64,000 bases of DNA from Escherichia phage naam, in sequence record MN850630.1; one strand, given 5' to 3'. The notes below the pieces were generated by a model, which worked only from the letters and a program-made list of their open reading frames with translations, had not been told where the DNA came from and searched no databases. Below are positions 7,981 to 64,000 of the stretch, piece by piece. The position numbers were made by a program, and so were the translations under genes. Each line of letters opens with the position of its first letter. Positions within the stretch are counted from its first letter, which is position 1.

Positions 7981-7988
7981 CCTTTAAA

Positions 7989-8015
7989 GCCCCGCTTCGG
8001 CGGGGTTTATTTTTA
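7989..8015 (+). terminator. Rho-independent terminator, UUCG-tetraloop hairpin plus U-tract
   Basis: gccccgc-ttcg-gcgggg followed by tttatttttat; same hairpin family as 2481 and 34148. Confidence 0.8.
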
Positions 8016-8023
8016 TGCTCAGA

Positions 8024-8052
8024 TTGACTATTGTTACAAAATTTGGTAAAAT
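8024..8052 (+). promoter_or_regulatory. Sigma70-like promoter (TTGACT-17-TAAAAT)
   Basis: -35 at 8024-8029, -10 at 8047-8052; shares aaaatttggtaaaata with the promoter at 2513. Confidence 0.55.
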
Positions 8053-8085
8053 ACCTTGTAGAGATTTTCATACCGGAGGAGTGAC

Positions 8086-9576: not shown

Positions 9577-9587
9577 GGCGGCGAGAT

Positions 9588-10274
9588 ATGGCAGAGATTA
9601 AGTCGGATGTTAACCACATCCACACTCTGCCAGATTTTGTTCAGGGAGGTCTTGACTACCTGCCTGGAGATTTTCTGGCTGAGAAGGTTAATTTGGTCAC
9701 ATTCTTAACCGTGTACCTTAAAAGGTTGGAGGATGTTGATAAGATGCTGGTAGGTTTGGCTGAAGGAAGATTGCTTAACAATGCCAGCGGAAGATACCTT
9801 GACGAAGTTGGTAATCAACTTGGTATTCTTAGGAATGGACTTTCAGATGCTGATTTTCGTGCCACACTAATTATTCAGCAGGCCGCAGCATCAAGGGGCG
9901 GGACTCGCGAAGATGTCATCTCCACCTTGCGACAATTGTTCGGAAGAAACAATTTCGATACGTGGAAAGGAGACAACTTCAGGTTTGACATAAATATTAG
10001 AAAAACTTGCTTTGACATATTGCAGTCTATCGATCAGATCTTAGATATGCTACCATTGCCTTGTCATTTGCGTCTTACAGAATCGCAAGGGCAAGCTTTT
10101 GGTTTTGAAGGGGACCATACAGCTCTTGGCTTCGGATCAGTGTGGGAAGAAAACCAATTCGGAGTTGGTGGGCTGGCTACTTTGCTGTATGTTCCTGACG
10201 TAAGACCTGATTGGGACACCACAACCATTTATTGTGAAAGTATTACAGTAAACGCAACTAGACAGGAGGGTTAA
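9588..10274 (+). CDS. Hypothetical structural protein
   Basis: ATG with RBS; 228 aa; translationally coupled to the next gene (ATG overlaps stop). Confidence 0.55.
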   Translation: MAEIKSDVNHIHTLPDFVQGGLDYLPGDFLAEKVNLVTFLTVYLKRLEDVDKMLVGLAEGRLLNNASGRYLDEVGNQLGILRNGLSDADFRATLIIQQAAASRGGTREDVISTLRQLFGRNNFDTWKGDNFRFDINIRKTCFDILQSIDQILDMLPLPCHLRLTESQGQAFGFEGDHTALGFGSVWEENQFGVGGLATLLYVPDVRPDWDTTTIYCESITVNATRQEG

Positions 10275-12346: not shown

Positions 12347-12358
12347 TCAGGAGATAAA

Positions 12359-13399
12359 ATGTCAAAACCTAGTTTTCCATTAGAGATTTGGGCAGAGGAG
12401 GATCAGGTTCTGCCTAACACCCACAGACAGAACAGGCTACGCCCGATTGATGATTTGTGGAGAAAAGGTTGGGATCTTGGTCAAAAGCCCTCATGTGAAG
12501 AACTTAACTATATTTTCAATATGCTCGGAACTTGGGCAAAATACATTGCTGACGAGCAGATCCCCGCTCAAGAAGGCCGTTATCTGGTACGTGATAATAA
12601 CTTGAGTGATCTTTTGAACATTCCTGTTGCCCGTAGAAACCTTGGGATTATTACTAGGGAAGAGGCAGACGCCAGGTATGTAAAAGTTACAGGTGATACA
12701 ATGACAGGCCCATTGGGTTTGCAACGTATCAACTTTAAAGCTGCCGAGACAGATAAGGCTTGGATAGAGACAACTATTGGCCCAGATAAGACAACTCTCG
12801 ACTTTGGGTTAAGTGATAATACTGGGGCGTTTGATGATGGTGGCACATCTACAATAGATGCGTTTCGTTGGAGATTCCAGCCAACTCAGCCGGATATTAA
12901 TCCGGAGTTCACTTTGATGTACCTTAACGCGATCACGGCTAACCGTGCGCTGTTGAAAGTGGTAGGCAATGTTGAAGTTGTCGATAACATGAGGTGCAAT
13001 AACCTTACTATCAGCAATACCGCAACATTCACCAACTGTAATGTGGCCAGTCAGTTGACGGCTGGGTCAGTATATGTTAATGGTGGTGCAAGTTGTGACA
13101 GTATGGTTGTAAGAAGCCAGCACTGTGTTGTAGGTAACAGAAATGTGGTTCGCTCCGTGAATGGAGTGACGGCTAACGGTAACGGTGATGTAACGATCAC
13201 TATCCCGCAGACAGGTGTGCAAGACATCAGAATCGGTGCAAGACTTGTGGACGGCGTTTCTGAATCTCCAATCCGCAACGGATACGTTGTCACAGGCTGG
13301 CATTTCGGTGACAAAAAAGAGATGCGTGGTTCAACCTACTGGGCAGGACCTTTACAAAAACTTGTAAATGGTCAATGGATCACTGTTAATTATGCATAG
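12359..13399 (+). CDS. Side tail fibre protein (distal, receptor-binding part), copy 1
   Basis: Followed by a Tfa-family gene; paralog of 14414-15457 with conserved N-terminus and C-terminal YWAGPLQKLVNGQWITVNYA. Confidence 0.7.
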   Translation: MSKPSFPLEIWAEEDQVLPNTHRQNRLRPIDDLWRKGWDLGQKPSCEELNYIFNMLGTWAKYIADEQIPAQEGRYLVRDNNLSDLLNIPVARRNLGIITREEADARYVKVTGDTMTGPLGLQRINFKAAETDKAWIETTIGPDKTTLDFGLSDNTGAFDDGGTSTIDAFRWRFQPTQPDINPEFTLMYLNAITANRALLKVVGNVEVVDNMRCNNLTISNTATFTNCNVASQLTAGSVYVNGGASCDSMVVRSQHCVVGNRNVVRSVNGVTANGNGDVTITIPQTGVQDIRIGARLVDGVSESPIRNGYVVTGWHFGDKKEMRGSTYWAGPLQKLVNGQWITVNYA

Positions 13400-54732: not shown

Positions 54733-55068
54733 ATGGTAACATTAGAAAGACGTAAAGCTATCGCCGCCACACTGGCAGACATCTTTTGGGAGTGCAATTT
54801 AAAAGATACCCGATATTGTGGCGCATCTGTAGATGCATTATTCCCACGGCCCACTATTGTTGCAATGGGAAACCTGTCAAACGTGGTGTATGGAGCATGG
54901 GACAAAGAAGGTGGATTTTATATCTGGCAACCTGACTACGGGACCTGGAAAGAGGTAAGGGGTGCGGATGACTTTGGGCCTGCAGTTGCCAAAACGATGG
55001 ATGGCTGGCAAATTTATGTTGGAAATGACATGAAGCTGAAAGGCGAGATTGTTTACTGGTTACCTTAA
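54733..55068 (+). CDS. Hypothetical protein
   Basis: 111 aa ORF. Confidence 0.5.
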   Translation: MVTLERRKAIAATLADIFWECNLKDTRYCGASVDALFPRPTIVAMGNLSNVVYGAWDKEGGFYIWQPDYGTWKEVRGADDFGPAVAKTMDGWQIYVGNDMKLKGEIVYWLP

Positions 55069-55088
55069 GAAAGTGCAGGAGATAAAGT

Positions 55089-55334
55089 ATGAACAAAGGG
55101 TGGACATTTGTAGACGGCGTTGAAAACATGCCTCTAGGAAAGTATATTGTAGCCATGGCAGATGAGAATGGCAAGGTTGATTTCGGAGCTTGCGAGATTG
55201 TTCTTGCAGGATCTGGTGACCATGTGCACAAAACTGGGATAATTAACGGTCATTTCTACTTTGATTACAACCCTGTTGTGGCGTATATGGCTATGCCAGA
55301 GTTAGAGCTCCCAAAGGAGGGTGCAGATGTTTAA
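55089..55334 (+). CDS. Hypothetical protein
   Basis: 81 aa ORF with RBS aggaga. Confidence 0.5.
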   Translation: MNKGWTFVDGVENMPLGKYIVAMADENGKVDFGACEIVLAGSGDHVHKTGIINGHFYFDYNPVVAYMAMPELELPKEGADV

Positions 55335-55524
55335 GCTTAAATCTGCATGGAACATCGCTGTGGGGGACGAGATCCGCATCCCAGGTGGAAAGACCATTAT
55401 GAAGATATCACGTATCGAGTATGAAGGTGATCGTGTATTTCATATCTTTGCAGAAGATGGTCGAGAAATTTATATACAGGCAGGCTCTCATATCTATATC
55501 CATAAGAAAGGGGACGACAAATGA
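55327..55524 (+). CDS. Hypothetical small protein
   Basis: ATG at 55327 with RBS aaaggagg (track GTG start 55321). Confidence 0.45.
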   Translation: MFKLKSAWNIAVGDEIRIPGGKTIMKISRIEYEGDRVFHIFAEDGREIYIQAGSHIYIHKKGDDK

Positions 55525-55853
55525 CAGAGATCATCGTTTCAACTGCAGGGTATGTATTCCTGACAATCATTGCGTTGGCTATTCTGGTGGCGGTGTATGG
55601 ATTTGTTATCCTGCCTATTCTTGAGACATTTAGCTTGTGTCGGTGTTGGAGAAAAGCTTACGGACCACAACCGTGGAAAGACTGGTTTCATTTGGTGCGT
55701 ATAGCGTTCTCTTATGCCTATGATCACTCCAGCAGTGCATGCGTAACCGGGTACCATGCCTACAACTGGAACTGGGAAGGGCTGGGGAGATGGACTGTTA
55801 CAAAAACTATACCCTTACGGTTGTATAAAGGAAAGAACACACTGGGAGCCTGA
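55521..55853 (+). CDS. Hypothetical membrane protein
   Basis: 110 aa with N-terminal hydrophobic helix IVSTAGYVFLTIIALAILVAVYGFVILPIL; last gene before the repeat region. Confidence 0.5.
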   Translation: MTEIIVSTAGYVFLTIIALAILVAVYGFVILPILETFSLCRCWRKAYGPQPWKDWFHLVRIAFSYAYDHSSSACVTGYHAYNWNWEGLGRWTVTKTIPLRLYKGKNTLGA

Positions 55854-56159
55854 TATTTTAAGTTATCAGGTTGCCAGAGATCAGGAGGATTTCTAAAATG
55901 GATTTCCTCCTTTTGATATTTTACCTACCAGGATATTTTAAAATCCTTAGAAAATCAGAAAATGGATCGAAAACTAAAATGGATTTTTCAGAGCAGGCAC
56001 GACGAGATGAACCACTCATCCTATCGTCTGCACCATATTCCAGACCACCATTACAGATTTCCCGCACATGCTCACACCCTTCTACTAGAACTTCCCCCAC
56101 TTACCCTTGACCTTTTATAGTAATAATCCAACCACTACCTTGAAGTTGTGGCGCAGCTT

Positions 56160-56345
56160 TCCAAGTACTCGATCTGTTTTTCGTTTCAAAGATTGAATTT
56201 TCTGAAAATTTTTCTCGATAAATTTCTCAGTACTCGATCTGTTTTTCGTTTTCTGAATCGGATTTTCTGGAAATCGTTCCGGCTCTCGACCTGAAATTTT
56301 TGGGGACGAAATCGATTTTTCGTTTTCAGAAATGGATTTTTAAAA
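56160..56345. repeat. Tandem direct repeats (about 65-bp period; two near-identical copies plus one degenerate), iteron-like
   Basis: agtactcgatctgtttttcgttt at 56164 and 56229; third diverged copy around 56307-56340; AT-rich, with recurring aaaatggat words nearby. Confidence 0.7.
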
Positions 56346-56401
56346 TTTCTATATGGGAATATTTTAGTGGATACTATTTTATAGGAAATTGTTACGGAGG
56401 G

Positions 56402-56419
56402 TAATTAGCGTGCTAATTA
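56402..56419. repeat. Palindrome taattag-cgtg-ctaatta (candidate protein-binding site)
   Basis: 7-bp inverted arms around a 4-bp centre in an AT-rich stretch. Confidence 0.5.
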
Positions 56420-56457
56420 AATTTATTAAATGCGAGGAGTTCTCATTTAGAATTTTG

Positions 56458-56700
56458 AATGATAATCATTCTCGTTTGCAGAATAACGGGCAGGCCCGGT
56501 GATTGTCTCCCGGCCCCTGTTGCCCCGGCTTGTTATTATAGTATCACACAGGACAAAGAAGGCAAGGATTTTTTGCATAAATTTTTAAATGATAATGATA
56601 ACCGTTCTCATTTTATGCAGCGCCCATCCCCGGTGGTTGTCTCCCCCGTCACCGGTGCCTGCCGTCCTTTCGATAGGTATATTGTGCCACCTGGCGGGGC
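56458..56700. repeat. Two diverged copies of a roughly 100-bp element (aatgataat...ccggtg.ttgtctccc...)
   Basis: Copy A about 56458-56545, copy B about 56588-56700; the ORF-track 95-aa ORF here is probably not coding. Confidence 0.55.
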
Positions 56701-56866
56701 CGCTGTCAACACCTTTTCAAAAAATTTTTCTAACCTGATGCGCTAACCGTTGCAACCTGGCGGGGCCAGCCTGGCAGGACCTAACTGACCAGGTGGGAGA
56801 GGGTGAAATCTTGCAAACCTGGTAGGCCCATGCTGTAGGGTAAACAATTGAAGAGGAGGTACAAAA

Positions 56867-57109
56867 ATGAAAGGTAATGCTACTCACCTGGGAAATGTAG
56901 CGATTAATGACGCTGAGGCTATCACCCTGGTTGAAAAGGCTATGGCGGGAGCGTTGGAACATAAAGAAGAGTACGAAAAAATGATGGTTAACCTGGCAGG
57001 GGCGGCGGCTGGAGAATTCTGCCCAAAAAATAATTCTAACCAATGGTTGACAGCTCGGATAGTTCTGTTATTCTTATCCTCGCAAGGTGAACAACACCAC
57101 ACTAATTAA
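56867..57109 (+). CDS. Early small protein, hypothetical
   Basis: 80 aa ORF with strong RBS gaagaggagg; first gene after the repeat region. Confidence 0.55.
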   Translation: MKGNATHLGNVAINDAEAITLVEKAMAGALEHKEEYEKMMVNLAGAAAGEFCPKNNSNQWLTARIVLLFLSSQGEQHHTN

Positions 57110-57126
57110 CAGAGAGGATAAAAATC

Positions 57127-57324
57127 ATGAACGCCTACGGAATTAAAGTACGTCGCAACACTCGCCAGGCCGTCACCGATCAAATGGTTTGCCAGGTGGA
57201 CGTAACCATCAACAACGGGCAAGGCCTTTATAAATTCCGTCGCGGTCAGAGCTATACCCGGCAACAGCTTAATCGTTGCGCCCTGACAAAAGGCCAGATC
57301 AACCACTGGTTTAATAAAAAATAA
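57127..57324 (+). CDS. Early small basic protein, hypothetical
   Basis: 65 aa; RBS context agaggataaaaatcATG recurs at other early genes. Confidence 0.5.
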   Translation: MNAYGIKVRRNTRQAVTDQMVCQVDVTINNGQGLYKFRRGQSYTRQQLNRCALTKGQINHWFNKK

Positions 57325-57327
57325 GTA

Positions 57328-57356
57328 TTGACATATAGTCCGACACCAAATACACT
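57328..57356 (+). promoter_or_regulatory. Sigma70-like promoter (TTGACA-17-TACACT)
   Basis: Begins 4 nt after the upstream stop codon; A-rich upstream. Confidence 0.6.
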
Positions 57357-57388
57357 AAAAGCACAAAAGACACTAAGAGGATAAAATC

Positions 57389-57787
57389 ATGAAAACCACT
57401 ACCTTTAATTTTGATAATGCGGACTTTTCTTTTTCTGATGTCAAGAACTGCCGCCGTGATCGTGGATTCTACAAGGCTTATAATCTGGTTGGCCTGGACG
57501 ATGACAATAATTTGCACGAAGTAGCTGAGATCCGGTATTATGCCGCCGCCAGCGGGAACACTCACTACTGCGTGTTTTGGATTCACGACAACAAGAACAA
57601 TAAGTACGGTTATACTGGCGGCAAGGCGAGCGGTCACGGTTACGATAAAGCTAACGCAGCACTTGAGAGCGCATTAAATGCTATGGGGATCACTGCCGAC
57701 GGCTGGATCTACGAAGAAGAGTTTTTGTCGGCACTTGCTGACCACCTGGGCTATAAAAAACACATTGTAACATGCGCCCACGAATAA
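57389..57787 (+). CDS. Early protein, hypothetical
   Basis: 132 aa ORF with RBS aagagga. Confidence 0.55.
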   Translation: MKTTTFNFDNADFSFSDVKNCRRDRGFYKAYNLVGLDDDNNLHEVAEIRYYAAASGNTHYCVFWIHDNKNNKYGYTGGKASGHGYDKANAALESALNAMGITADGWIYEEEFLSALADHLGYKKHIVTCAHE

Positions 57788-57793
57788 AAATCA

Positions 57794-57821
57794 TTGACAC
57801 GCTGCAAAATTTAAGTAAACT
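57794..57821 (+). promoter_or_regulatory. Sigma70-like promoter (TTGACA-16-TAAACT) followed by 5'-UTR hairpin
   Basis: Hairpin ggcggga-atgtt-tcccgcc at 57832-57850 between the -10 and the RBS. Confidence 0.6.
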
Positions 57822-57869
57822 AGACACAAAAGGCGGGAATGTTTCCCGCCAGCACAAAGGAAAAAGATC

Positions 57870-58265
57870 ATGAATAAGAACGTACGCCGCATCATGAACG
57901 AACTGGCAAACGATGAAAAAATTATTGATATGCATTTGGTCAACATTTGCCGCCGTTGTGTAACATATAACAACCGCGCCGCAAAAGCGCGTGAGATGAA
58001 CGCAAAAGGCACCTTAAAGCCCTTTCAGGTGGTTGTAAAATCTATAACTAGCGCAGCAGGCCAGGCGCAGGACCACAACAACGAGAGCGCTAATATTGAT
58101 CCGTCTTACGTAATGAAACGGATCCGGACTTGCAAGAATAAAGAGCAGGTATATAACGTCATAGATTGGCTGGACTCCCTGGGCGATGTGGTTTACAATA
58201 GGTTTTCTGCAGCTATCGAGATCCAGCTTGACAGATTGGACGGGAAAGTACTAAAAACTTATTGA
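57870..58265 (+). CDS. Early protein, hypothetical
   Basis: 131 aa ORF with RBS aaggaaaaag. Confidence 0.55.
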   Translation: MNKNVRRIMNELANDEKIIDMHLVNICRRCVTYNNRAAKAREMNAKGTLKPFQVVVKSITSAAGQAQDHNNESANIDPSYVMKRIRTCKNKEQVYNVIDWLDSLGDVVYNRFSAAIEIQLDRLDGKVLKTY

Positions 58266-58313
58266 GTTTATTTTTAGATGGCCTTGACACCAGGGCCATC
58301 AATAAAGTAAACT
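58266..58313 (+). promoter_or_regulatory. Repeated 47-bp element, copy 1: palindrome GATGGCC-N10-GGCCATC around TTGACA, then TAAACT
   Basis: Starts right after the upstream stop; palindrome arms at 58277-58283 and 58294-58300; -35 at 58284-58289; -10-like at 58308-58313. Confidence 0.6.
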
Positions 58314-58345
58314 AACCACAGTTGAGCGGAAAAGGAGGCTTAAAG

Positions 58346-58465
58346 ATGAGCACTACACGCCAGCACACAAAGGTAACCATCATCGTTTGCATCATTGGGT
58401 ACATCCTGGCGCAAATGTTGATGGGTAGCGCCAACGGTGTCGCAAAATTTTTCTTAAACTTTTAA
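58346..58465 (+). CDS. Small hydrophobic peptide (39 aa), hypothetical
   Basis: Not in the ORF track; ATG after RBS aaaaggagg; product MSTTRQHTKVTIIVCIIGYILAQMLMGSANGVAKFFLNF has one predicted TM helix. Confidence 0.4.
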   Translation: MSTTRQHTKVTIIVCIIGYILAQMLMGSANGVAKFFLNF

Positions 58466-58493
58466 TTGACAAGCTAACTTAAATCGATATAAT
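58466..58493 (+). promoter_or_regulatory. Consensus sigma70 promoter (TTGACA-16-TATAAT)
   Basis: Followed by a small 5'-UTR hairpin (gggaa...ttccc) and the strong RBS of the acidic protein gene. Confidence 0.75.
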
Positions 58494-58544
58494 AAGCACA
58501 TAAACGGGAAAACTTCCCAGAACACACAAAAGGAGAAAAACACC

Positions 58545-58886
58545 ATGACTACTATGACCGCCTCAGAAAAAGCTATGCAGATCGCTGAACTGAAAAAACA
58601 GATCGCAGACCTTGAGAATAAGATCGATAACTTTGAAATCGACGAGGACAAGTACGACGAAAACTATGATGAATGGTTAGACGAGATCTACGGCGAAATT
58701 ATGATCGGAAACATTTCTTTTCTTCCGTCGCGTATCCTCAAGGAGCTAGATCCTATCGCTTACCGCTGCGGATTTAGCGACTACATCGACAGCCTGGATA
58801 TTGAGGACGATGAAGAATACCAGGAATTACAGACAGAGTTAGAAGAAGCAAAAGAAGAGCTTGCGGAGCTGGAAGAAAACGAGTAA
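58545..58886 (+). CDS. Highly acidic 113-aa protein, candidate DNA mimic / anti-restriction (Ocr-like in concept)
   Basis: About one third D+E by hand count, very few K/R, coiled-coil-like segments; behind a perfect consensus promoter. Confidence 0.5.
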   Translation: MTTMTASEKAMQIAELKKQIADLENKIDNFEIDEDKYDENYDEWLDEIYGEIMIGNISFLPSRILKELDPIAYRCGFSDYIDSLDIEDDEEYQELQTELEEAKEELAELEENE

Positions 58887-58934
58887 GCTTATTTTTAGAT
58901 GGCCTTGACACCAGGGCCATCAATAAAGTAAACT
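58887..58934 (+). promoter_or_regulatory. Repeated 47-bp element, copy 2
   Basis: Identical core ttatttttagatggccttgacaccagggccatcaataaagtaaac immediately after the stop codon. Confidence 0.6.
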
Positions 58935-58975
58935 TTATACTGTTAACACTGAACTAATGCATAGGAGTTAAAACC

Positions 58976-59221
58976 ATGGCAGCACTAATCACCAAATATT
59001 ATGCCCCTACCAACACCAAAAGCGCCCGTATCATGGTAAAAGGCTTCGGACGTAAAAAGGTGTACACCTGGGATTATGCCTTAGACACGGAAGACAACTA
59101 CACCAACGCGATGACCGATTTTATTAATGATCTGAACACGCGGATCTTGACAAATTATAAAATTACCGATATTGCCTATATAGGGGAAGGCGGGATCTGT
59201 TTTGTCGGTATCGTCAAATAA
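58976..59221 (+). CDS. Early protein, hypothetical
   Basis: 81 aa ORF with RBS aggag. Confidence 0.55.
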   Translation: MAALITKYYAPTNTKSARIMVKGFGRKKVYTWDYALDTEDNYTNAMTDFINDLNTRILTNYKITDIAYIGEGGICFVGIVK

Positions 59222-59296
59222 GCTGTTTTTTCGGTGGTCCTGGTAGCAGGGCCATCTATAAAGATAGTTTATCAATACAATGAAAGGAGAAAGTAC

Positions 59297-59650
59297 ATGA
59301 TCAGCGGGGCAAGTTTTATTATTGGCGCTATTGCTACGGCTTTAATTGTAAACAAGATCCAATCTAAAAACGAAAAAGATAGCAACGCCCTTACAGAATA
59401 CCCGTTTTGGGTATTCAACGACAATGAAGACTATATTATCAAGTACAAGAATGAGAAGGGCGACCAGGTAACACCGCGACCGATCCCGGCTTACAAGATG
59501 CAAGAAACACTATACCGCCTAAAGGCTGGAGGCGCAAAAATCGTAGACTTTTGGGGATACGATCACACAGATCAGGAAGTTATAAAGCGCCGTATCCGGG
59601 CTATTCAGGCCAATATTGAAGTTAGCAAGGGGGGAATATATGAAGATTAA
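59297..59650 (+). CDS. Early protein with N-terminal transmembrane helix, hypothetical
   Basis: ATG at 59297 with RBS aaaggagaaag (track start 59234 lies in the degenerate repeat copy); MISGASFIIGAIATALIV. Confidence 0.5.
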   Translation: MISGASFIIGAIATALIVNKIQSKNEKDSNALTEYPFWVFNDNEDYIIKYKNEKGDQVTPRPIPAYKMQETLYRLKAGGAKIVDFWGYDHTDQEVIKRRIRAIQANIEVSKGGIYED

Positions 59651-59837
59651 TTTTGAGAAGATTGTAAAGCGATCTCATGATTCCGAAGAGCTGCCGGAAC
59701 GCCGCCAGCGCAACAATAAACTGAATAAGCCAAAAAGATTTGGGAAGATCTGGCGGAATCATTATGATCGCAAATTACCGGGCCTGCTTTTGGAACGTGA
59801 ACGACAGGCGGAACGATACCGCCACAAAGGCAAATAA
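59640..59837 (+). CDS. Small highly basic protein, hypothetical
   Basis: ATG at 59640 with RBS aagggggga (track start 59616); Arg/Lys-rich. Confidence 0.45.
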   Translation: MKINFEKIVKRSHDSEELPERRQRNNKLNKPKRFGKIWRNHYDRKLPGLLLERERQAERYRHKGK

Positions 59838-59845
59838 CAACCAAC

Positions 59846-59874
59846 GCCCCGCCATTGTGCGGGGCTTTTTATTT
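59846..59874 (+). terminator. Rho-independent terminator
   Basis: gccccgc-cattgt-gcggggc followed by tttttattt. Confidence 0.8.
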
Positions 59875-60018
59875 CTATCCTACGAATAGCGCCCCTGGTT
59901 GGCCCTGTAAGCGCCAAAAAGGCCCCACCTATACAATCGCCCCCCTTTAACCTGAAAACATCGCTTAGGGCCGTTTTATGGCGTTAAAAATATCATTGAC
60001 AGTGATTTTATTTAAAGC

Positions 60019-60046
60019 TTGACATCTTAAACAGGTTAGCTATACT
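60019..60046 (+). promoter_or_regulatory. Sigma70-like promoter (TTGACA-16-TATACT)
   Basis: A second TTGACA lies 23 nt upstream (59996). Confidence 0.65.
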
Positions 60047-60078
60047 AACCACATCAAAGAGAGAAAGGAGTAAACGCC

Positions 60079-60339
60079 ATGCGTAAATTAAAAAATTTTG
60101 ATAAAGTTGATGTTGTCCTGAATAATTTTTACTACTGCAACAACAAGGCCATTTGGTGGCGTGATAGTTCCACCGATAAAGTTAAAGCTCGCTTTCTCCA
60201 AGGGCACTGGCAAGGCCGTCCAGTGATTAAAATACTGGGGCAACTGGTAGCGTTTAAAAATTGCCGCCGTGTTGATGACGTTGAAGAGATCTTGAACATT
60301 TTACGCCACAATAATTTAAAAAATAGTGTTGACAAGTAA
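60079..60339 (+). CDS. Early protein, hypothetical
   Basis: 86 aa ORF with RBS aaaggag. Confidence 0.55.
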   Translation: MRKLKNFDKVDVVLNNFYYCNNKAIWWRDSSTDKVKARFLQGHWQGRPVIKILGQLVAFKNCRRVDDVEEILNILRHNNLKNSVDK

Positions 60340-60356
60340 ATCTCGATAAGTATACT
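60329..60356 (+). promoter_or_regulatory. Sigma70-like promoter (TTGACA-16-TATACT) followed by 5'-UTR hairpin
   Basis: -35 overlaps the upstream gene's 3' end; hairpin ggcgggaaaacttcccgcc at 60367-60385. Confidence 0.65.
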
Positions 60357-60413
60357 TAAACACACAGGCGGGAAAACTTCCCGCCACTAACAAAGAAAAT
60401 AGGAGAAAATATC

Positions 60414-61037
60414 ATGACCACCGTTAACATTACCACAGGTTACAATTTATCTTTCGACGTGCTGACCGACGAACAAAAAGAAAAAGCTATTGAAATGGTC
60501 CGCGAAAGAGAAGAACACAGCGGGGATAATTTTTTTGCAGAAAGTGTAATTGAACACTATAAAGAATATGTCTTTCCAGAGTACGGCCTTGAAGATACCG
60601 AAGTACGTTGGTCCGGCTTTTGGTGTCAAGGCGATGGCGCGTCAATCAGTGCTGAAAACGTGGATTTAGAAAAATTCTTGCGTAAAGTAAAGGCCCTGAC
60701 CAAGTTCCGATCAATTCGTCACTTGTTCGGCACAATGCACGATGGCGAGTTATCAGCCAGTGTTGAACGTATCCCGTTTAGCCATTATCATCACGAAAAC
60801 ACAATAGGAGGGTGCATCGATACTAATTGGCTAGACCTGACCACCAAGCAAGAGGACAAAGTTGAAGAGCTGGAAGAGCTGATCACCGAGACGGTACGGG
60901 AGCTATCACGCAAGGTTTACGTAGACCTGGAGGAGGCCTATCTTGAACAGTTTACTACCGAAAACCTGATCGGCCTTATTGAAGCCAATGATTGGCGGTT
61001 TGATGTGGATGAATATGGGGAGATGAGTTTTTCATAA
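60414..61037 (+). CDS. Acidic early protein (207 aa), hypothetical
   Basis: ORF with RBS aggagaaaa; D/E-rich. Confidence 0.55.
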   Translation: MTTVNITTGYNLSFDVLTDEQKEKAIEMVREREEHSGDNFFAESVIEHYKEYVFPEYGLEDTEVRWSGFWCQGDGASISAENVDLEKFLRKVKALTKFRSIRHLFGTMHDGELSASVERIPFSHYHHENTIGGCIDTNWLDLTTKQEDKVEELEELITETVRELSRKVYVDLEEAYLEQFTTENLIGLIEANDWRFDVDEYGEMSFS

Positions 61038-61045
61038 ATAAAGTG

Positions 61046-61073
61046 TTGCAATAATCTAAAAACCTGCTATATT
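61046..61073 (+). promoter_or_regulatory. Sigma70-like promoter (TTGCAA-16-TATATT) followed by 5'-UTR hairpin
   Basis: Hairpin at 61084-61103 whose loop contains the ATG wrongly used by the ORF track. Confidence 0.6.
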
Positions 61074-61127
61074 AAAAACTCAAGGGGCGAGATGACTTGC
61101 CCCCCACAAAACAAAGAGGAAAACATC

Positions 61128-61508
61128 ATGAAAAACACTACTAAAGCTATTGACACCGTTATGTTTAACCTGGTTACATTCCGTGAAGATATGAAAGATC
61201 TTCCACGTGAAACAGTGTGCGACCATATCGAAAACTATCGCAAACTAATCAAAGAGTTGCCTTTAAAACGTGACCAGTACGCGGCTAACGCTATGCTTAA
61301 CGCCATGATCAAAAAGATGATCCAGTGTGATTTAACTCTGGCCTATGATTATGCAGGCGGTCGTTTTGCAGTATACAATCAGCCCGTGCCCGGTATGAGC
61401 ACCACCGAAGAATTGCACGCGTTAAATCTGAAACAAGATGTATGGGATAACATGCCCCGCGTGGTGGTGTGGGCAGAAAGCGGAAAGATTTACGGCGATA
61501 ATTTTTAA
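61128..61508 (+). CDS. Early protein, hypothetical
   Basis: ATG at 61128 with RBS aagagga (track start 61092 is in the UTR hairpin loop). Confidence 0.5.
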   Translation: MKNTTKAIDTVMFNLVTFREDMKDLPRETVCDHIENYRKLIKELPLKRDQYAANAMLNAMIKKMIQCDLTLAYDYAGGRFAVYNQPVPGMSTTEELHALNLKQDVWDNMPRVVVWAESGKIYGDNF

Positions 61509-61572
61509 TCAGGTAACAGGCGGCATATTTGCCGCCTTATTGTTAAACAGAACTGCAAAAGAGGTACATAGA

Positions 61573-61944
61573 ATGGAATTTATTATTTTGGCTGTAGTAG
61601 TTGCCTTGTTCAACGCCTGGATCGCTGGCAAGATGGGTAGATCCGCCTTTTTATGGTTTATTATATCTATTTTCCTGGGGGTGGTTGCAACTATTGTACT
61701 TGTTATCCTTGCAATTGTTGACAAGGGGAATAATAGAAAGGGTAAAGTATTTTCAGACCTGTACGACGCTCAAACATTTGTCAACGCCTACTACAGCGAT
61801 CTTCCAGTCTCCCTACGTTGCAGCCTTGCACAACAGGTTTTCGATGAAGCTAAAACCAGAGATCACGCCCATGAGATTTGTTTAACTGAGGCGGATCGCC
61901 TATTTGAGAGGAATAGAAAATATGTGGACCAGCCGTTTAAATAA
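61573..61944 (+). CDS. Small membrane protein (two predicted TM helices), hypothetical
   Basis: ATG at 61573 with RBS aaaagagg (track start 61438 overlaps the upstream gene); MEFIILAVVVALFNAWIAG and LWFIISIFLGVVATIVLVILAIV. Confidence 0.5.
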   Translation: MEFIILAVVVALFNAWIAGKMGRSAFLWFIISIFLGVVATIVLVILAIVDKGNNRKGKVFSDLYDAQTFVNAYYSDLPVSLRCSLAQQVFDEAKTRDHAHEICLTEADRLFERNRKYVDQPFK

Positions 61945-62143
61945 TGCCACGTTAATTAACCCCTTTAGTGAAGATTTGAAGCCAGCCGCCTGGCGGGATG
62001 GATTCAATAACGAAAGCTTTATTTTCAGGCCTGATCTTAAGGAATTTTATAACAATGGATCGAACAACGACAGAGATAATTTTTCTTGTAATGTGCGTGG
62101 TGATAATACTCCTGGGGGCCATTGCAAACCACGTCACTGCTAA
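61922..62143 (+). CDS. Hypothetical small protein (frame uncertain)
   Basis: ATG at 61922 after gagagg; an alternative overlapping frame (61998-62180) encodes a TM peptide, so the assignment is ambiguous. Confidence 0.3.
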   Translation: MWTSRLNNATLINPFSEDLKPAAWRDGFNNESFIFRPDLKEFYNNGSNNDRDNFSCNVRGDNTPGGHCKPRHC

Positions 62144-62163
62144 CAGGAGGAAAGGGGGAGACG

Positions 62164-62283
62164 ATGACACCCAAGGATAAGCCCCGCACCGATAAGGCGC
62201 GCCGTGTTATGGTATGGCTTGAGATCATCGCCCTTGAAATATTGTTAGGCGTAGGGATGTATTTTATCGCTGTAAGTAACTGA
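62164..62283 (+). CDS. Small membrane peptide (39 aa), hypothetical
   Basis: Not in the ORF track; ATG after strong RBS aggaggaaagggggag; hydrophobic WLEIIALEILLGVGMYFIAV; terminator follows. Confidence 0.4.
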   Translation: MTPKDKPRTDKARRVMVWLEIIALEILLGVGMYFIAVSN

Positions 62284-62287
62284 TAAC

Positions 62288-62325
62288 GGCCCCGATCCCT
62301 GGGGCCTAACTTTTCAAATTTTTTT
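62288..62325 (+). terminator. Rho-independent terminator
   Basis: ggcccc-gatccct-ggggcc followed by taacttttcaaattttttt. Confidence 0.75.
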
Positions 62326-62336
62326 CTCCCTGAGTG

Positions 62337-62365
62337 TTGCAATCCGATCCAGAATATGGATAATA
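62337..62365 (+). promoter_or_regulatory. Sigma70-like promoter (TTGCAA-17-ATAATA) followed by 5'-UTR hairpin
   Basis: Shares aatatggataata with the promoter at 63155; hairpin gggga-gacac-tcccc at 62375-62389. Confidence 0.55.
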
Positions 62366-62423
62366 ACAATCAACGGGGAGACACTCCCCACCGCATAGAC
62401 AAAGTTCCAAAAGGAGAAACAAA

Positions 62424-62624
62424 ATGAGCAACAATATCCGCGTTATTAACTTCAAAAAAGAAGAAAAAATTGCCGTGCTGATTGACGGTCAAGAAATCTT
62501 TAAAGGTGATTATGAAGATCATCAAACGGCGATTAGTATCACTCGCGTGATTGGTTACCATAATTTTTACCCTCAAGGCGCTGAGGCAGCAGTAAAACGA
62601 ATTAAAGAGATTGTAGGCCTGTAA
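62424..62624 (+). CDS. Early small protein, hypothetical
   Basis: 66 aa ORF with RBS aaaggagaaa. Confidence 0.5.
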   Translation: MSNNIRVINFKKEEKIAVLIDGQEIFKGDYEDHQTAISITRVIGYHNFYPQGAEAAVKRIKEIVGL

Positions 62625-62673
62625 AATTTATTTTTAGATGGCCTTGACTCCAGGGCCATCAATAAAGTAAATT
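62625..62673 (+). promoter_or_regulatory. Repeated 47-bp element, copy 3 (TTGACT variant)
   Basis: Palindrome arms at 62637-62643 and 62654-62660; immediately after the upstream stop. Confidence 0.6.
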
Positions 62674-62715
62674 TAAACCCTGTTAAAATAATCAGTGCAA
62701 AAAGGAGTAATGATC

Positions 62716-63015
62716 ATGTTTATCCAGGCTAATAATCTTTATTTCTTTGATGGTCAGATCGTAGACGGCGTGGAGGTGGAAATAACCGGGTGCCCTGGCG
62801 GTCAGGTTATGACTTTTCGGAATAATGCCTTTGATGATTCTCATATCGTTATGAGAATGGAAGTTAGTAAGCTGGATGACAAGAAAACACTTATCGACTA
62901 TTCCGTCAAAGATCATCCAGACTACCACATGATCTATGGTGATTTGTGCATTGTTGACCGTGACAAGGTGAACGGCATTGTTATAGCCATTGTGAACGAT
63001 GTTTTCTCTGAATAA
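62716..63015 (+). CDS. Early protein, hypothetical
   Basis: ATG at 62716 is 8 nt after RBS aaaggag (track GTG start 62695). Confidence 0.5.
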   Translation: MFIQANNLYFFDGQIVDGVEVEITGCPGGQVMTFRNNAFDDSHIVMRMEVSKLDDKKTLIDYSVKDHPDYHMIYGDLCIVDRDKVNGIVIAIVNDVFSE

Positions 63016-63154
63016 TTCCGGCAAATGATGCAAAATAAGGCCCCTAGCAGGGCCTGCAGCGATATAATCACATAAAGGCTATGCGGTTGCATGGCCTTTA
63101 TTATTTTAGCGTTACAGCGGCCCCAAGGCGCTTAAAAAATTTTTAAAGAAGTAC

Positions 63155-63183
63155 TTGCATCAAGTCCTACAATATGGATAATA
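63155..63183 (+). promoter_or_regulatory. Sigma70-like promoter (TTGCAT-17-ATAATA) followed by 5'-UTR hairpin
   Basis: Hairpin ggggg-cgg-ccccc at 63195-63207. Confidence 0.55.
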
Positions 63184-63239
63184 GGACGTGTCAGGGGGGC
63201 GGCCCCCAATCATTAACCGGATAGATAGGAGTTAAAATC

Positions 63240-63524
63240 ATGGCTATTGTCACCGTTGGCGATGTAGTGGAAATGGAAGCAAAATACTTAAAAGCGGGTA
63301 TGCATATCCTACGGAATGATCAAGAATTGTTATTAACGATGGTAGACTATAATCCCGGCCAGGATTATCCAAGCATCGACTACTTTTTTGAGTATGTTGA
63401 TGAAGAATTGAAAGAGGATGAGACTTATCAGGGTGAATTCTGCAATTTCTTTTGCCCTGATGAGGTTGTAAAAGTTATCTATCAACCTGGCGTACCTTTC
63501 CCGCTGCACGCTATCAATAAATAA
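63240..63524 (+). CDS. Early protein, hypothetical
   Basis: 94 aa ORF with RBS aggag. Confidence 0.55.
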   Translation: MAIVTVGDVVEMEAKYLKAGMHILRNDQELLLTMVDYNPGQDYPSIDYFFEYVDEELKEDETYQGEFCNFFCPDEVVKVIYQPGVPFPLHAINK

Positions 63525-63555
63525 ACCTGGCGGGGCCGAAAAGGCCCCCGCCTGA
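63525..63555 (+). other. Strong GC hairpin without U-tract (ggcggggcc-gaaaa-ggcccccgcc), contains third copy of 13-mer ACCTGGCGGGGCC
   Basis: Immediately after the stop of the 63240 gene; possible RNA stability or processing element or weak terminator. Confidence 0.45.
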
Positions 63556-63586
63556 AATTATGAAAAATAAAAAGAGGCAAACTATC

Positions 63587-63817
63587 ATGATGGAACAAAT
63601 TAAACGCGCTGAGGCTATTAATGGCAATGTGATCTATTTTGTCAGCAATAACGAAAAAGGCGTACCATATGCGGCGGTAATAGTACAGCCTGACGGCAAT
63701 TATTGGTTTACTGTATACGGATCTTATTCTTTCGGGCGTCCGGTGCATGATAGAATTTTAAAAGTAGCGAACCCAACCGGGAAGAATATCACAGCAGAAA
63801 AATTTTTTGAAAAATAG
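63587..63817 (+). CDS. Early protein, hypothetical
   Basis: ATG at 63587 with RBS aagagg (track start 63560). Confidence 0.5.
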   Translation: MMEQIKRAEAINGNVIYFVSNNEKGVPYAAVIVQPDGNYWFTVYGSYSFGRPVHDRILKVANPTGKNITAEKFFEK

Positions 63818-63845
63818 TTGACATGGCCTTATAAGACTGTAGAAT
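63818..63845 (+). promoter_or_regulatory. Sigma70-like promoter (TTGACA-16-TAGAAT) followed by 5'-UTR hairpin
   Basis: Starts right after the upstream stop; hairpin ggggc-aa-gcccc at 63856-63867. Confidence 0.6.
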
Positions 63846-63892
63846 ATAAATCAAAGGGGCAAGCCCCATCAACGGCAAAGAGGATAAAAATC

Positions 63893-64000
63893 ATGGCTAT
63901 TATTGCAAAGACTGAGATCGTAGGCTTAGATTCTATTCTCCTCGCATATGAGGAAGCTATAGAAATGTATGTGGTTTCCTATGGTGAGTATATCCGTGAA
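63893..64000 (+). CDS. Early protein, 3' partial (runs off the window)
   Basis: ATG with RBS agaggataaaaatc; no stop before the window end. Confidence 0.45.
   Translation, partial: MAIIAKTEIVGLDSILLAYEEAIEMYVVSYGEYIRE

Follow-up and report, generated by a model that had tools for sequence, protein, structure and literature searches.

The distal part of the window, which is the whole 64,000 nt stretch of Escherichia phage naam DNA analyzed here (MN850630.1), is probably an array of promoter and stem-loop cassettes, the Vequintavirus counterpart of the 'PeSL' cassettes known from T4-like phages. The window is 94-97% identical to published Vequintavirus genomes, and the region in all likelihood belongs to an rV5-like myophage of this genus, as the distal stretch of its variable small-gene ('ORFan') region. 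Helicase, primase and DNA polymerase genes lie upstream on the same strand. Positions 56867-64000 contain a run of 20 small genes of unassigned function (A to T) on the + strand, only 22% of the interval is non-coding, and four intrinsic terminators divide it into five blocks. The array extends past both ends of this interval, and in relatives it goes on for about 2-3 kb past the window end. An earlier note on this DNA mentioned neither this extension nor the four terminators and conserved hairpins. The rV5 genome paper had already predicted seven of the promoters (Kropinski 2013, Table S4), which means that the core finding was known; the hairpins at about +5, the 49 nt repeated cassette and the gene gain and loss at its copies go beyond those predictions. 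The genes are as follows.

56867-57109, + strand: gene A, 80 aa, pI 5.7, phrog_21957 (function unassigned)
57127-57324, + strand: gene B, 65 aa, pI 10.7
57389-57787, + strand: gene C, 132 aa
57870-58265, + strand: gene D, 131 aa, pI 9.3
58346-58465, + strand: gene E, 39 aa, membrane peptide
58545-58886, + strand: gene F, 113 aa, pI 4.1
58976-59221, + strand: gene G, 81 aa
59297-59650, + strand: gene H, 117 aa, N-terminal hydrophobic segment, overlaps I
59640-59837, + strand: gene I, 65 aa, pI 10.8, Pfam Phage_1_1 / T7 gp1.1 (E = 1e-10)
60079-60339, + strand: gene J, 86 aa, pI 9.9
60414-61037, + strand: gene K, 207 aa, pI 4.5
61128-61508, + strand: gene L, 126 aa
61573-61944, + strand: gene M, membrane protein
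61922-62143, + strand: gene N, no promoter of its own
62164-62283, + strand: gene O, membrane peptide
62424-62624, + strand: gene P, 66 aa
62716-63015, + strand: gene Q, 99 aa, pI 4.5
63240-63524, + strand: gene R, 94 aa, pI 4.2
63587-63817, + strand: gene S, 76 aa, pI 9.0
63893-64000, + strand: start of gene T, which runs past the window end

The products range from 39 to 207 aa and, as the earlier note had described them, are small, unrecognizable and in many cases acidic, basic or membrane-associated. Pfam returned nothing significant for the array proteins except Phage_1_1 in gene I, and the PHROG matches are all of unknown function. The pI is 4.1-4.5 for the acidic products F, K, Q and R and at least 9.3 for the basic ones, B, D, E, I, J and O; a hydrophobic segment occurs in E, H, M and O as well as in the alternative ORF N2. 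Gene C has no PDB relative. The AlphaFold model of gene K is confident, yet it matched no PDB fold; DNA homologues of this gene are present in jumbo phages.

Ten sigma70-like sites scoring at least 10/12 are located on the + strand of 56867-64000, and none on the minus strand. In 500 dinucleotide-preserving shuffles of the same interval, the mean was 1.32 sites (sd 1.10, maximum 7) and no shuffle reached 10, which bears out the dense near-consensus promoters proposed in the earlier note. A start codon lies 60-85 nt downstream of nine of the ten sites, TTGACA occurs 14 times on the + strand versus 3 times on the minus strand, and the -35 hexamers are invariant across 13 related genomes while the spacers vary. 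These sequence comparisons support the view that the promoters are real, strand-specific and placed upstream of genes. Promoters outside the repeated cassette are listed below with their -35 and -10 hexamers and spacer lengths.

57047-57074, + strand: promoter of B, TTGACA-16-TATTCT, rV5 P195A, -35 invariant in relatives
57328-57356, + strand: promoter of C, TTGACA-17-TACACT, rV5 P195, -35 invariant
57794-57821, + strand: promoter of D, TTGACA-16-TAAACT, rV5 P194
58466-58493, + strand: promoter of F, TTGACA-16-TATAAT, 12/12, rV5 P192
60019-60046, + strand: promoter of J, TTGACA-16-TATACT, 11/12, rV5 P186
60329-60356, + strand: promoter of K, TTGACA-16-TATACT, 11/12, rV5 P185
61046-61073, + strand: promoter of L, TTGCAA-16-TATATT, 9/12
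62337-62364, + strand: promoter of P, TTGCAA-16-GATAAT, 9/12
63155-63182, + strand: promoter of R, TTGCAT-16-GATAAT, 9/12
63818-63845, + strand: promoter of T, TTGACA-16-TAGAAT, 11/12, rV5 P174

The perfect site at 58466 and the one-off sites at 60019, 60329 and 63818 had been correctly singled out in the earlier note, and so had the proximity of promoters to upstream stop codons: the distance is 0 nt after E and S (58466 and 63818), 3 nt after B (57328) and 6 nt at 57794, and the promoters at 57047 and 60329 lie inside the 3' end of gene A and over the last codons of J, respectively. Its statement that nearly every gene has a promoter was too broad, since 13 of the 20 genes (B, C, D, E, F, G, J, K, L, P, Q, R and T) have a promoter-like site of their own and A, H, I, M, N, O and S do not have a full one. 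Gene A is preceded by a weak TTGCAA-type site only, H by a degenerate cassette, and S by a hairpin with no recognizable promoter; M, N and O have none, M coming after a terminator, and I, N and O are translationally coupled or overlapping. Most promoters have a 16 bp spacer, which is sub-optimal in length, and those of L, P and R, whose -35 box is TTGCAA or TTGCAT, reach no more than 9/12. A/T-rich tracts sit upstream of the -35 boxes, a feature shared with strong early phage promoters.

The 49 nt repeated cassette, in which the -35 box is located inside a 10 bp hairpin, is present in three copies and one degenerate copy.

58265-58313, + strand: cassette copy 1, with a T-run, 10 bp hairpin at 58277-58300, -35 TTGACA at 58284-58289 and -10 TAAACT at 58308-58313; drives E
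58886-58934, + strand: cassette copy 2, 98% identical to copy 1; drives G
59221-59269, + strand: degenerate copy 3, 69% identical, -35 lost (CTGGTA), upstream of H
62625-62673, + strand: cassette copy 4, 94% identical to copy 1, -35 TTGACT, -10 TAAATT; drives Q

Copy 1 folds at -17.8 kcal/mol (z = -5.1). The degenerate copy keeps the 10 bp hairpin (59233-59256, -17.8 kcal/mol) through two G-U pairs, which would count as mismatches in the DNA duplex and on the minus strand alike, so its fold is kept only as + strand RNA. The cassette occurs about three times per genome in 120 records, all rV5-like, a few of which were deposited as Campylobacter or Shigella phages. Genes E and F are missing exactly between copies 1 and 2 in phiWec189, ECP26, ECP32 and ime, and G is missing exactly between copy 2 and the degenerate copy in 241Ecol014PP, which carries a hybrid cassette at the junction. 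Because these absences fall exactly between copies, comparison with relatives shows that the cassettes are recombination points, the short homologies through which one- or two-gene modules are added or removed. Only these two kinds of cassette-bounded indel were seen, and one further indel, a 351 bp gene after Q, is without bounding cassettes. The modular duplication suggested in the earlier note therefore holds for the 49 nt cassette but not for the ribosome-binding context on which it was based. That context does recur before the genes at 57127, 57389 and 63893, and similarly at 61111 (CAGAGAGGATAAAAATCATG at 57110, CAAAGAGGATAAAAATCATG at 63876, ACTAAGAGGATAAAATCATG at 57372 and ACAAAGAGGAAAACATCATG at 61111; repeat families D5 and D8), but it is a shared strong Shine-Dalgarno sequence with an A-rich spacer and not a duplicated module.

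Downstream of seven other promoters (D, F, K, L, P, R and T) lies a GC-rich hairpin, beginning 10, 12, 10, 10, 10, 11 and 10 nt beyond the -10 box, respectively, i.e. at about +5 of the predicted transcript.

57832-57850, + strand: hairpin D, GGCGGGAA-TGT-TTCCCGCC, -14.6 kcal/mol, z = -3.4
58506-58518, + strand: hairpin F, GGGAA-AAC-TTCCC, weaker, -5.5 kcal/mol
60367-60385, + strand: hairpin K, GGCGGGAA-AAC-TTCCCGCC, -14.6 kcal/mol, z = -4.5
61084-61103, + strand: hairpin L, GGGGCGAG-ATGA-CTTGCCCC, -14.6 kcal/mol, z = -3.4
62375-62389, + strand: hairpin P, GGGGAG-ACA-CTCCCC, about -10.5 kcal/mol alone
63194-63207, + strand: hairpin R, GGGGG-GCGG-CCCCC
63529-63552, + strand: GC-rich hairpin upstream of S, without recognizable promoter or T-run
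63856-63867, + strand: hairpin T, GGGG-CAAG-CCCC

Folding of D, K, L and P lies 3.1-4.5 sd below shuffles; for P this refers to the 56 nt leader (-13.0 kcal/mol, z = -3.1), which includes a second small helix besides the hairpin. The F and T hairpins are weak (z = -1.7 and -1.2), and the R leader is indistinct from shuffles (z = -0.2). Across relatives the loops change or flip and the stems persist, with a stem-disrupting change in two single genomes. At the third pair of the R hairpin, the window has G-C, relatives L001 and L014 have G-U, and L007, whose K hairpin also carries a G-U pair, has A-U; the L stem changes in a compensatory manner from GGGG/CCCC to GGCGGGC/GCCCGCC in L016. The T loop is 4 nt longer in most relatives. 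Since G-U and compensatory substitutions keep the pairing, the comparison supports a function of the stem-loops as + strand RNA.

We propose that most transcription units start with a composite regulatory cassette. It combines an A/T-rich tract that runs over the stop codon of the preceding gene, -35 and -10 boxes close to the sigma70 consensus, a GC-rich stem-loop, and a leader, A-rich and unstructured, that carries a strong Shine-Dalgarno sequence and the ATG. The stem-loop either wraps the -35 box, as in the 49 nt cassette before E, G and Q and its degenerate form before H, or stands at about +5 of the predicted RNA, as before D, F, K, L, P, R and T. Transcription from these promoters most likely starts immediately upon infection, through the unmodified sigma70 RNA polymerase of the host. 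The stem-loops may protect the 5' terminus of the new transcript from 5'-end-dependent decay, a stabilizer role suggested by general knowledge of E. coli mRNA decay rather than by phage data, or attenuate read-through from upstream promoters, and the repeated cassettes double as short recombination homologies for module gain and loss, as the comparison with relatives shows. Early timing and a host-takeover or anti-defence role, both claimed in the earlier note, are what we infer at most: sigma70-like promoters occur throughout the whole rV5 genome (Kropinski 2013), so promoter type alone does not fix timing, and our literature search turned up no transcription start site, transcriptomic, timing or mRNA half-life study for any rV5-like phage.

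The stem-loops could instead be ordinary terminators or attenuators of the upstream gene, brought close to the promoters by genome compactness alone, a reading that we consider possible but unlikely. In the annotation of phage EdH4, several of the hairpins, those of D and T among them, are labelled putative terminators, and the hairpin has survived in the degenerate cassette where the promoter has not, suggesting a function in transcripts that arrive from upstream. However, neither the +5 hairpins (D included) nor the cassette hairpins are followed by a U-tract on the + strand, which makes termination by the +5 hairpins under E. coli rules doubtful, whereas true U-tract terminators are found elsewhere, at 59846, 61518, 62288 and 63072:

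59846-59874, + strand: terminator after I, GCCCCGC...GCGGGGC then TTTTTATTT
61518-61545, + strand: terminator after L, rV5 t184
62288-62320, + strand: terminator after O, rV5 t181
63038-63110, + strand: two stem-loops after Q, a terminator at 63072-63101 (rV5 t177) and a stem-loop at 63038-63055 with a terminator-like score on the minus strand only

Moreover, the +5 hairpins keep a nearly fixed spacing to the -10 box (10-12 nt), whereas their distance from the preceding stop codon ranges from 28 to 179 nt (calculated from the coordinates), as would befit an element that belongs to the new transcript.

It is rather improbable that the palindromes are DNA operators, at which a dimeric phage or host protein would bind ATGGCC...GGCCAT over the -35 box, and perhaps the +5 palindromes, for shut-off at the switch to later transcription. 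In every copy and every relative the arms and TTGAC are unchanged, whereas three loop bases differ, a palindrome over the -35 box is in the typical repressor position, and early shut-off is expected because rV5 encodes an Srd-like putative anti-sigma protein (Kropinski 2013). Yet this invariance may come from recombination homogenizing the copies, and one sequence-specific protein could not read all the +5 hairpins, which differ in sequence (GGCGGGAA.., GGGGCGAG.., GGGGAG.., GGGGG..). Relatives keep the pairing and not the sequence, and the two G-U pairs of the degenerate cassette would mismatch in duplex DNA. That the promoter-like sites are a compositional coincidence in A/T-rich intergenic DNA, with a few long operons read from distant promoters, is barely credible. 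Consensus scans do over-call in such DNA (shuffles of 54-64 kb give 21.6 sites at 9/12), and H, I, M, N, O and S are clearly without their own promoter, but 10 sites versus 1.3 ± 1.1 in shuffles, with none on the other strand, refute coincidence statistically for practical purposes. The TTGACA strand bias, the fixed position upstream of start codons, the invariant hexamers between mutating spacers and the fixed hairpin geometry relative to the -10 box also argue against it.

Promoter and stem-loop layouts of this kind are also known outside the rV5-like lineage. We found no report of PeSL-type cassettes in rV5-like phages. In AV123, a phi92-like phage of a different subfamily, the same promoter-plus-hairpin unit is repeated, with GGCGGGAAATGGTTTCCCGCC at offset 8-11. 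A PeSL stem-loop lowered lacZ expression in a reporter about as much as rrnB T1 did, and its authors read these stem-loops as terminators or attenuators for the upstream gene, a view that favors the terminator interpretation. The PeSL cassettes described in T4-like phages have the same layout and agree feature for feature with those of the array, which would make the rV5-like array their equivalent in architecture and behavior in a different phage lineage.

The consensus scan recovered the four near-consensus sigma70 promoters singled out in the earlier note (58466, 60019, 60329 and 63818) precisely where they had been placed. Sites matching the consensus at 10 or more of 12 positions numbered ten on the plus strand of 56867-64000 and none on the minus strand; 500 dinucleotide-preserving shuffles gave a mean of 1.32 sites (sd 1.10), and ten was reached in none of them. 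Plus-strand copies of the hexamer TTGACA number 14 in the region, against three on the minus strand. With 78% of the region coding, nine of the ten sites nevertheless fall 60-85 nt ahead of a start codon, and three sites matching at 9 of 12 positions, with TTGCAA or TTGCAT as the -35 hexamer (61046, 62337 and 63155), occupy the equivalent position ahead of L, P and R (the 20 small genes are lettered A to T, and promoters and hairpins take the letter of the downstream gene). A/T-rich tracts precede nearly all -35 boxes. Extended -10 elements were considered at the P and R promoters and rejected, the TG being out of register. The closeness of the promoters to stop codons, the sizes of the genes, the charge and membrane character of their products, and the common RBS context were all borne out. 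The statement that nearly every gene has its own promoter proved too strong: 13 of the 20 genes possess a site of their own, and the rest are coupled, overlapping or located after a terminator. The shared RBS context had also been taken as a sign of modular duplication, a reading we reject because it amounts to a generic strong SD sequence followed by an A-rich spacer.

The phage belongs to the genus Vequintavirus (rV5-like E. coli myophages), of which more than 100 published genomes are 94-97% identical over the 7.1-kb stretch, the closest match being rV5_ev156 (96.9%). In the annotated relative WalterGehring (Bas51), the equivalent region follows the helicase, primase/helicase and DNA polymerase genes, all on one strand, and falls within a run of about 10 kb of small hypothetical genes that extends up to a gap; a convergent small-gene block lies past the gap, and the window ends inside a run of the Bas51 type. 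About 20 MG0656xx records titled 'Campylobacter phage' (host C. jejuni) match the present E. coli rV5-like sequence at 94% identity over the entire region, and their host labels are probably wrong. Relatives were gathered individually from GenBank phage records because an IMG/VR search with protein K gave only two close ones. Each intergenic region was then aligned with 13 related genomes, in which the -35 hexamers are unchanged and the -10 boxes seldom changed, substitutions falling in the spacers and leaders. At 59993-60024, immediately before the J promoter, there is a 23-nt segment that contains another TTGACA (59997); five relatives (L001, L002, L015, L016 and L017; L numbers denote comparison sequences) lack it, and the difference represents either a small tandem duplication or a deletion.

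The rV5 genome paper (Kropinski et al., 2013, PMC3606486) predicted 33 sigma70-type promoters and 20 terminators. In its Table S4, P195A, P195, P194 and P192 correspond to window positions 57047, 57328, 57794 and 58466, P186, P185 and P174 to 60019, 60329 and 63818, and the terminators t184, t181 and t177 to 61518, 62288 and 63072. As seven promoters are already in that table, the core finding was known, though only as a prediction. The table describes the same locus in a close relative, and its list includes neither the promoters of the 49-nt repeat described below (58284, 58905 and 62644) nor the TTGCAA-type promoters (61046, 62337 and 63155). The cited passages and table of the paper make no mention of post-promoter hairpins, of the 49-nt repeat or of a link to gene gain and loss. 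Its authors reported sigma70-type promoters scattered genome-wide in rV5 and, because of this spread, doubted a T4-like reprogramming of the polymerase. Our literature search yielded no transcriptomic or 5'-end mapping work on any rV5-like phage. The promoter array is typical of large lytic phages and published for rV5; what is new here is modest and consists of cassette behaviour like that of the promoter-early stem-loops (PeSLs) of T4-like phages, together with a fixed-position 5' hairpin in the rV5-like lineage.

GC-rich stem-loops follow seven of the promoters at a nearly constant distance. They start 10 nt after the -10 hexamer at D, K, L, P and T, 11 nt after it at R and 12 nt after it at F, which corresponds to about +5 of the RNA on the prediction that transcription starts 7 nt past the -10 box. 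The upstream stop codon lies anywhere from 28 to 179 nt before the hairpin, which is therefore tied to the promoter and not to the gene in front of it. For the D, K, L and P hairpins, folding energies are -13 to -14.6 kcal/mol, 3.1-4.5 sd under shuffled sequences; the hairpins of F and T are weak, that of R is indistinguishable from shuffles, and the remainder of every leader is unstructured. There is no hairpin at the B, C and J promoters, nor at good promoters elsewhere in the window (48170, 49370 and 54475). In the relatives, the promoter-plus-hairpin pattern runs on beyond the position of the window end. An Rfam search of 55000-64000 returned one match, at chance level (E = 0.21).

Several of these post-promoter hairpins are labelled as terminators in the EdH4 record. 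Intrinsic terminators consist of a GC hairpin and then a U-tract, and no U-tract follows any +5 hairpin on the transcribed strand, where the next sequences are AGCACAAAGG, ACTAACAAAG, CCACAAAACA and similar. The terminator scan picked out D, F, K and P as terminator-like, in each case solely on the minus strand, and left L, R and T unscored on either strand. U-tract intrinsic terminators are present at 59846, 61518, 62288 and 63072 and split the region into five blocks. The EdH4 labels on the post-promoter hairpins are probably wrong, and hairpins called terminators in public records such as this one are more likely 5'-leader structures. Minus-strand terminators, as flagged by the scan for four of the +5 hairpins, were rejected because no genes or promoters run in that direction. 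RNase III sites were rejected as well, the stems being just 5-10 bp. A role of the +5 hairpins as DNA-binding operators is unlikely because their sequences differ; for the 49-nt repeat, such a role is weakly possible.

The relatives provide evidence that these hairpins count at the RNA level: stems are kept and loops are altered, 4 nt longer or flipped. The loop of the D hairpin (57840-57842) is TGT in the window and ACA in L007, L014 and L016; in L007, the D hairpin is overall the exact reverse complement, with the centre of the palindrome flipped and the stem the same. At the third pair of the R stem, the window and five relatives have G-C, four relatives have G-U and L007 has A-U. In L016, GGGG/CCCC of the L hairpin is replaced by GGCGGGC/GCCCGCC, and the K hairpin of L007 contains one G-U pair. 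Disrupting changes occur in two single genomes. On the opposite strand, a G-U pair would become a C-A mismatch, and the constraint therefore lies on the plus-strand transcript. The MAFFT alignment of the R hairpin put the 5' arms out of register; the evidence for pairing consists of individual folds of each sequence. Judged from these folded sequences, the plus-strand hairpins are under selection.

Another form of hairpin covers the -35 box and is carried by a 49-nt element, AGYTTATTTTTAGATGGCCTTGACNNNAGGGCCATCAATAAAGTAAAYT, whose copies at 58265, 58886 and 62625 show 94-98% identity to the first copy and which has a further, 69% copy at 59221:

58265, plus strand: cassette copy 1, upstream of gene E
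58886, plus strand: cassette copy 2, upstream of gene G
59221, plus strand: degenerate cassette copy 3, upstream of gene H
62625, plus strand: cassette copy 4, upstream of gene Q

Copies 1, 3 and 4 were folded, copy 2 having a hairpin sequence identical to that of copy 1. The cassette forms a 10-bp hairpin of -17.8 kcal/mol (43-nt stretch; z about -5), with two T's of TTGACA in the stem, the remainder in or beside the loop, and the -10 box TAAACT 18 nt further on. The degenerate copy at 59221 has lost the -35 box and forms the same 10-bp hairpin with equal energy by means of two G-U pairs. Among the 13 relatives, the cassette arms and TTGAC are invariant and the three bases after TTGAC vary. 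The cassette is carried by 120 phage records, each genome having about three copies. Every one of these records is rV5-like, a few having been deposited under Campylobacter, Shigella or unnamed-phage labels.

Gene losses in the relatives coincide with these repeats. In phiWec189 and ECP26, which are devoid of E and F, the end of D leads through one cassette into the leader of G, and ECP32 and ime have the same junction. In 241Ecol014PP, which is devoid of G, the end of F leads through a hybrid cassette into the leader of H. Modules of one or two genes are therefore gained and lost through exchange between cassette copies. Cassettes do not bound a third indel, a 351-bp gene located directly after Q in many relatives (L001 9120-9490); this gene is absent at 63015-63035 of the window and from L014, L015, L016 and L018, and the junction has microhomology of just a few bases.

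The products of the 20 genes were searched against Pfam and PHROGs, which assigned them to PHROG families of unknown function or to none; the sole Pfam family was Phage_1_1, found for gene I. The genes discussed individually are as follows:

59640-59837, plus strand: gene I, 65 aa, pI 10.8, Pfam Phage_1_1 (T7 gp1.1) with 42.3 bits against a cut-off of 21 (E = 1.1e-10)
60414-61037, plus strand: gene K, 207 aa, the largest product, acidic, with an invariant SGFW.QGDGA motif
61922-62143, plus strand: gene N, 73 aa, with PHROG support
62055-62180, plus strand: N2, 41 aa, hydrophobic, preceded by an SD-like AAGGAA, no family match

Gene I overlaps the end of H by 11 nt. Between 61922 and 62180, candidate ORFs overlap in different frames, and public annotations disagree. 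The AlphaFold model of K is confident (pLDDT 87.5); in a Foldseek search of PDB with this model, no match fell below E = 0.49, a sequence search of PDB with the K and C proteins was negative, and a large-database homology search with K returned unnamed phage proteins only. At the DNA level, K has homologues in the jumbo coliphages 121Q and UB and distant ones in unrelated IMG/VR contigs, and it has the look of a horizontally mobile ORFan. Homologues of K carry the public labels 'YeeU-like antitoxin' and 'LTXXQ motif protein', which neither the PDB search nor the fold search supported, and the labels 'acetyltransferase' for C and 'phosphonoacetaldehyde hydrolase' for F are without Pfam support. 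From position and analogy, host-takeover or anti-defence roles are a reasonable guess, and the twenty ORFans would be reasonable candidates for host-interaction functions.

Directly upstream of the region, about 1 kb (55860-56860) contains no convincing ORF. This stretch has imperfect 65-74-nt tandem repeats at 56155-56340 and many AAATGGATTTT-like words; several ACCTGGCGGGGCC and CCTGGCAGG words occur at 56690-56830 and again at 63525. Rfam gave no match in 55860-56860, and the legend to Figure 2 of the rV5 paper refers to a 'non-coding' box without ORFs (PMC3606486). The stretch may represent an iteron-containing origin or a locus for a non-coding RNA.

The observation made in the earlier note is confirmed, and its interpretation as an early host-takeover module is partly supported. 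The anatomy, its conservation, the selection on the plus-strand hairpins and the cassette-bounded indels are established from sequence. The host sigma70 polymerase would fire the array promoters early, and the +5 hairpins would form the 5' ends of the messages and may slow 5'-end-dependent decay. The hairpins may also attenuate read-through from upstream, as the PeSL authors hold. A further-reaching idea, which we entertain but regard as rather improbable, is that the hairpin at 10-12 nt, which in Vequintavirus is maintained by compensatory as well as G-U changes, is a dedicated 5'-terminal RNA element of early messages and not the by-product of a compact terminator, and that the unit of promoter, 5' hairpin and SD sequence is the currency of gene exchange in large virulent coliphages. 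If the hairpin were such a dedicated element, early transcripts could escape RppH/RNase E decay while host messages are lost; alternatively, it could be what a phage factor recognises in later silencing or antiterminating the set as a whole. rV5-like phages are common candidates for therapy and biocontrol. Since the cassettes mark natural sites of gene gain and loss, they should be safe points for insertion or deletion, and they are predicted to offer compact strong expression units.

The placement of the +5 hairpins recalls the 5' stem-loops of ompA and papA, in which a stable hairpin lies a few unpaired nucleotides from the 5' end (Emory, Bouvet and Belasco, 1992, as described in the review PMC3997798); the comparison is an analogy only, as the start sites here are predicted. 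According to the same review, RNase E cleavage is much slower when the 5' end is base-paired. A repeated promoter motif was described in 2015 in PAK_P1-like phages (PMC4309531), which are distantly related to rV5-like phages: a near-identical, clade-specific 41-nt repeat containing TTGACA-N17-TAgAAT is present in several copies in a short putative early region. That motif differs from the cassette in sequence and host, and the passages describing it mention neither a stem-loop component nor a link to indels.

In phage AV123 (L021; phi92-like, Justusliebigvirus, Stephanstirmvirinae), positions 5892-13040 contain at least ten TTGACA-16/17-TAnnnT promoters, and after each, at an offset of 8-11 nt, come a hairpin of the GGCGGGAAATGGTTTCCCGCC type, an SD sequence and a small gene. 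The arrangement is as here, denser and in another subfamily, and the hairpin recurs in nearly the same sequence (GGCGGGAA...TTCCCGCC) in phi92-like phages. A pattern scan of viral contigs for the promoter plus the fixed word GGCGGGAA, and hence biased by that word, gave mostly single matches among those listed; these are probably due to chance, and the multi-copy contigs alone are informative. Among the matches listed, the multi-copy contigs were phi92-like or, in several cases, of high GC content with a GGCGGG..CCCGCC hairpin. One high-GC contig (L036) is identical to Mycobacterium phage Thonko 65229-69471; the right arm of Thonko carries at least four copies of TTGACA-N16/17-TAnnnT, 8-12 nt, GGCGGG-loop-CCCGCC, SD and ATG upstream of small genes. 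Similar single or double matches were seen in L069, L115 and further high-GC viral contigs among the matches listed. The high-GC unit may be a convergent early-gene layout.

The best match is to the PeSLs of T4-like myophages (Arbiol et al., 2010, PMC2839356; Comeau et al., 2014, PMC4122927), which our literature search found connected with rV5-like phages in no paper. Both systems run from a stop codon in an A/T-rich tract through a sigma70 promoter and a G-run/C-run stem-loop to the SD sequence and start of a small ORFan. At the 13 sites here, a stop codon lies 0-6 nt upstream of the -35 box or overlaps the promoter, and GGAG/GAGG-type SD sequences precede all genes. PeSL stem-loops vary in position, and both the 'overlapping -35' and the 'downstream of -10' subclasses are represented, by the four hairpins over the -35 box and the seven starting 10-12 nt after the -10 box. 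Like PeSLs, the cassettes cluster in a variable (hyperplastic) small-gene region whose gene content differs among relatives, and indels between close relatives, namely those of the E+F and G modules, are bounded by cassette copies. Unlike in PeSLs, the downstream hairpins are strikingly fixed at 10-12 nt past the -10 hexamer, within the transcript as predicted, and there is one true sequence-repeat type in three to four copies per genome, compared with about 50 motifs per genome in phi1 and RB49. PeSLs have been linked with promoter and terminator activity and with mini-circles, whereas the cassettes are known from sequence alone. The lineages, Vequintavirinae and T4-like, also differ, and nothing suggests a shared ancestry of the cassette sequences. 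If the cassettes act like T4 PeSLs, unrelated large lytic lineages would express and shuffle their accessory genes with one device, a self-contained promoter, hairpin and ribosome-binding site. Because the phage is a Vequintavirus and not a T4-like myovirus, its array is best described as an equivalent of the PeSLs in function and architecture, and not as a member of that group by descent.
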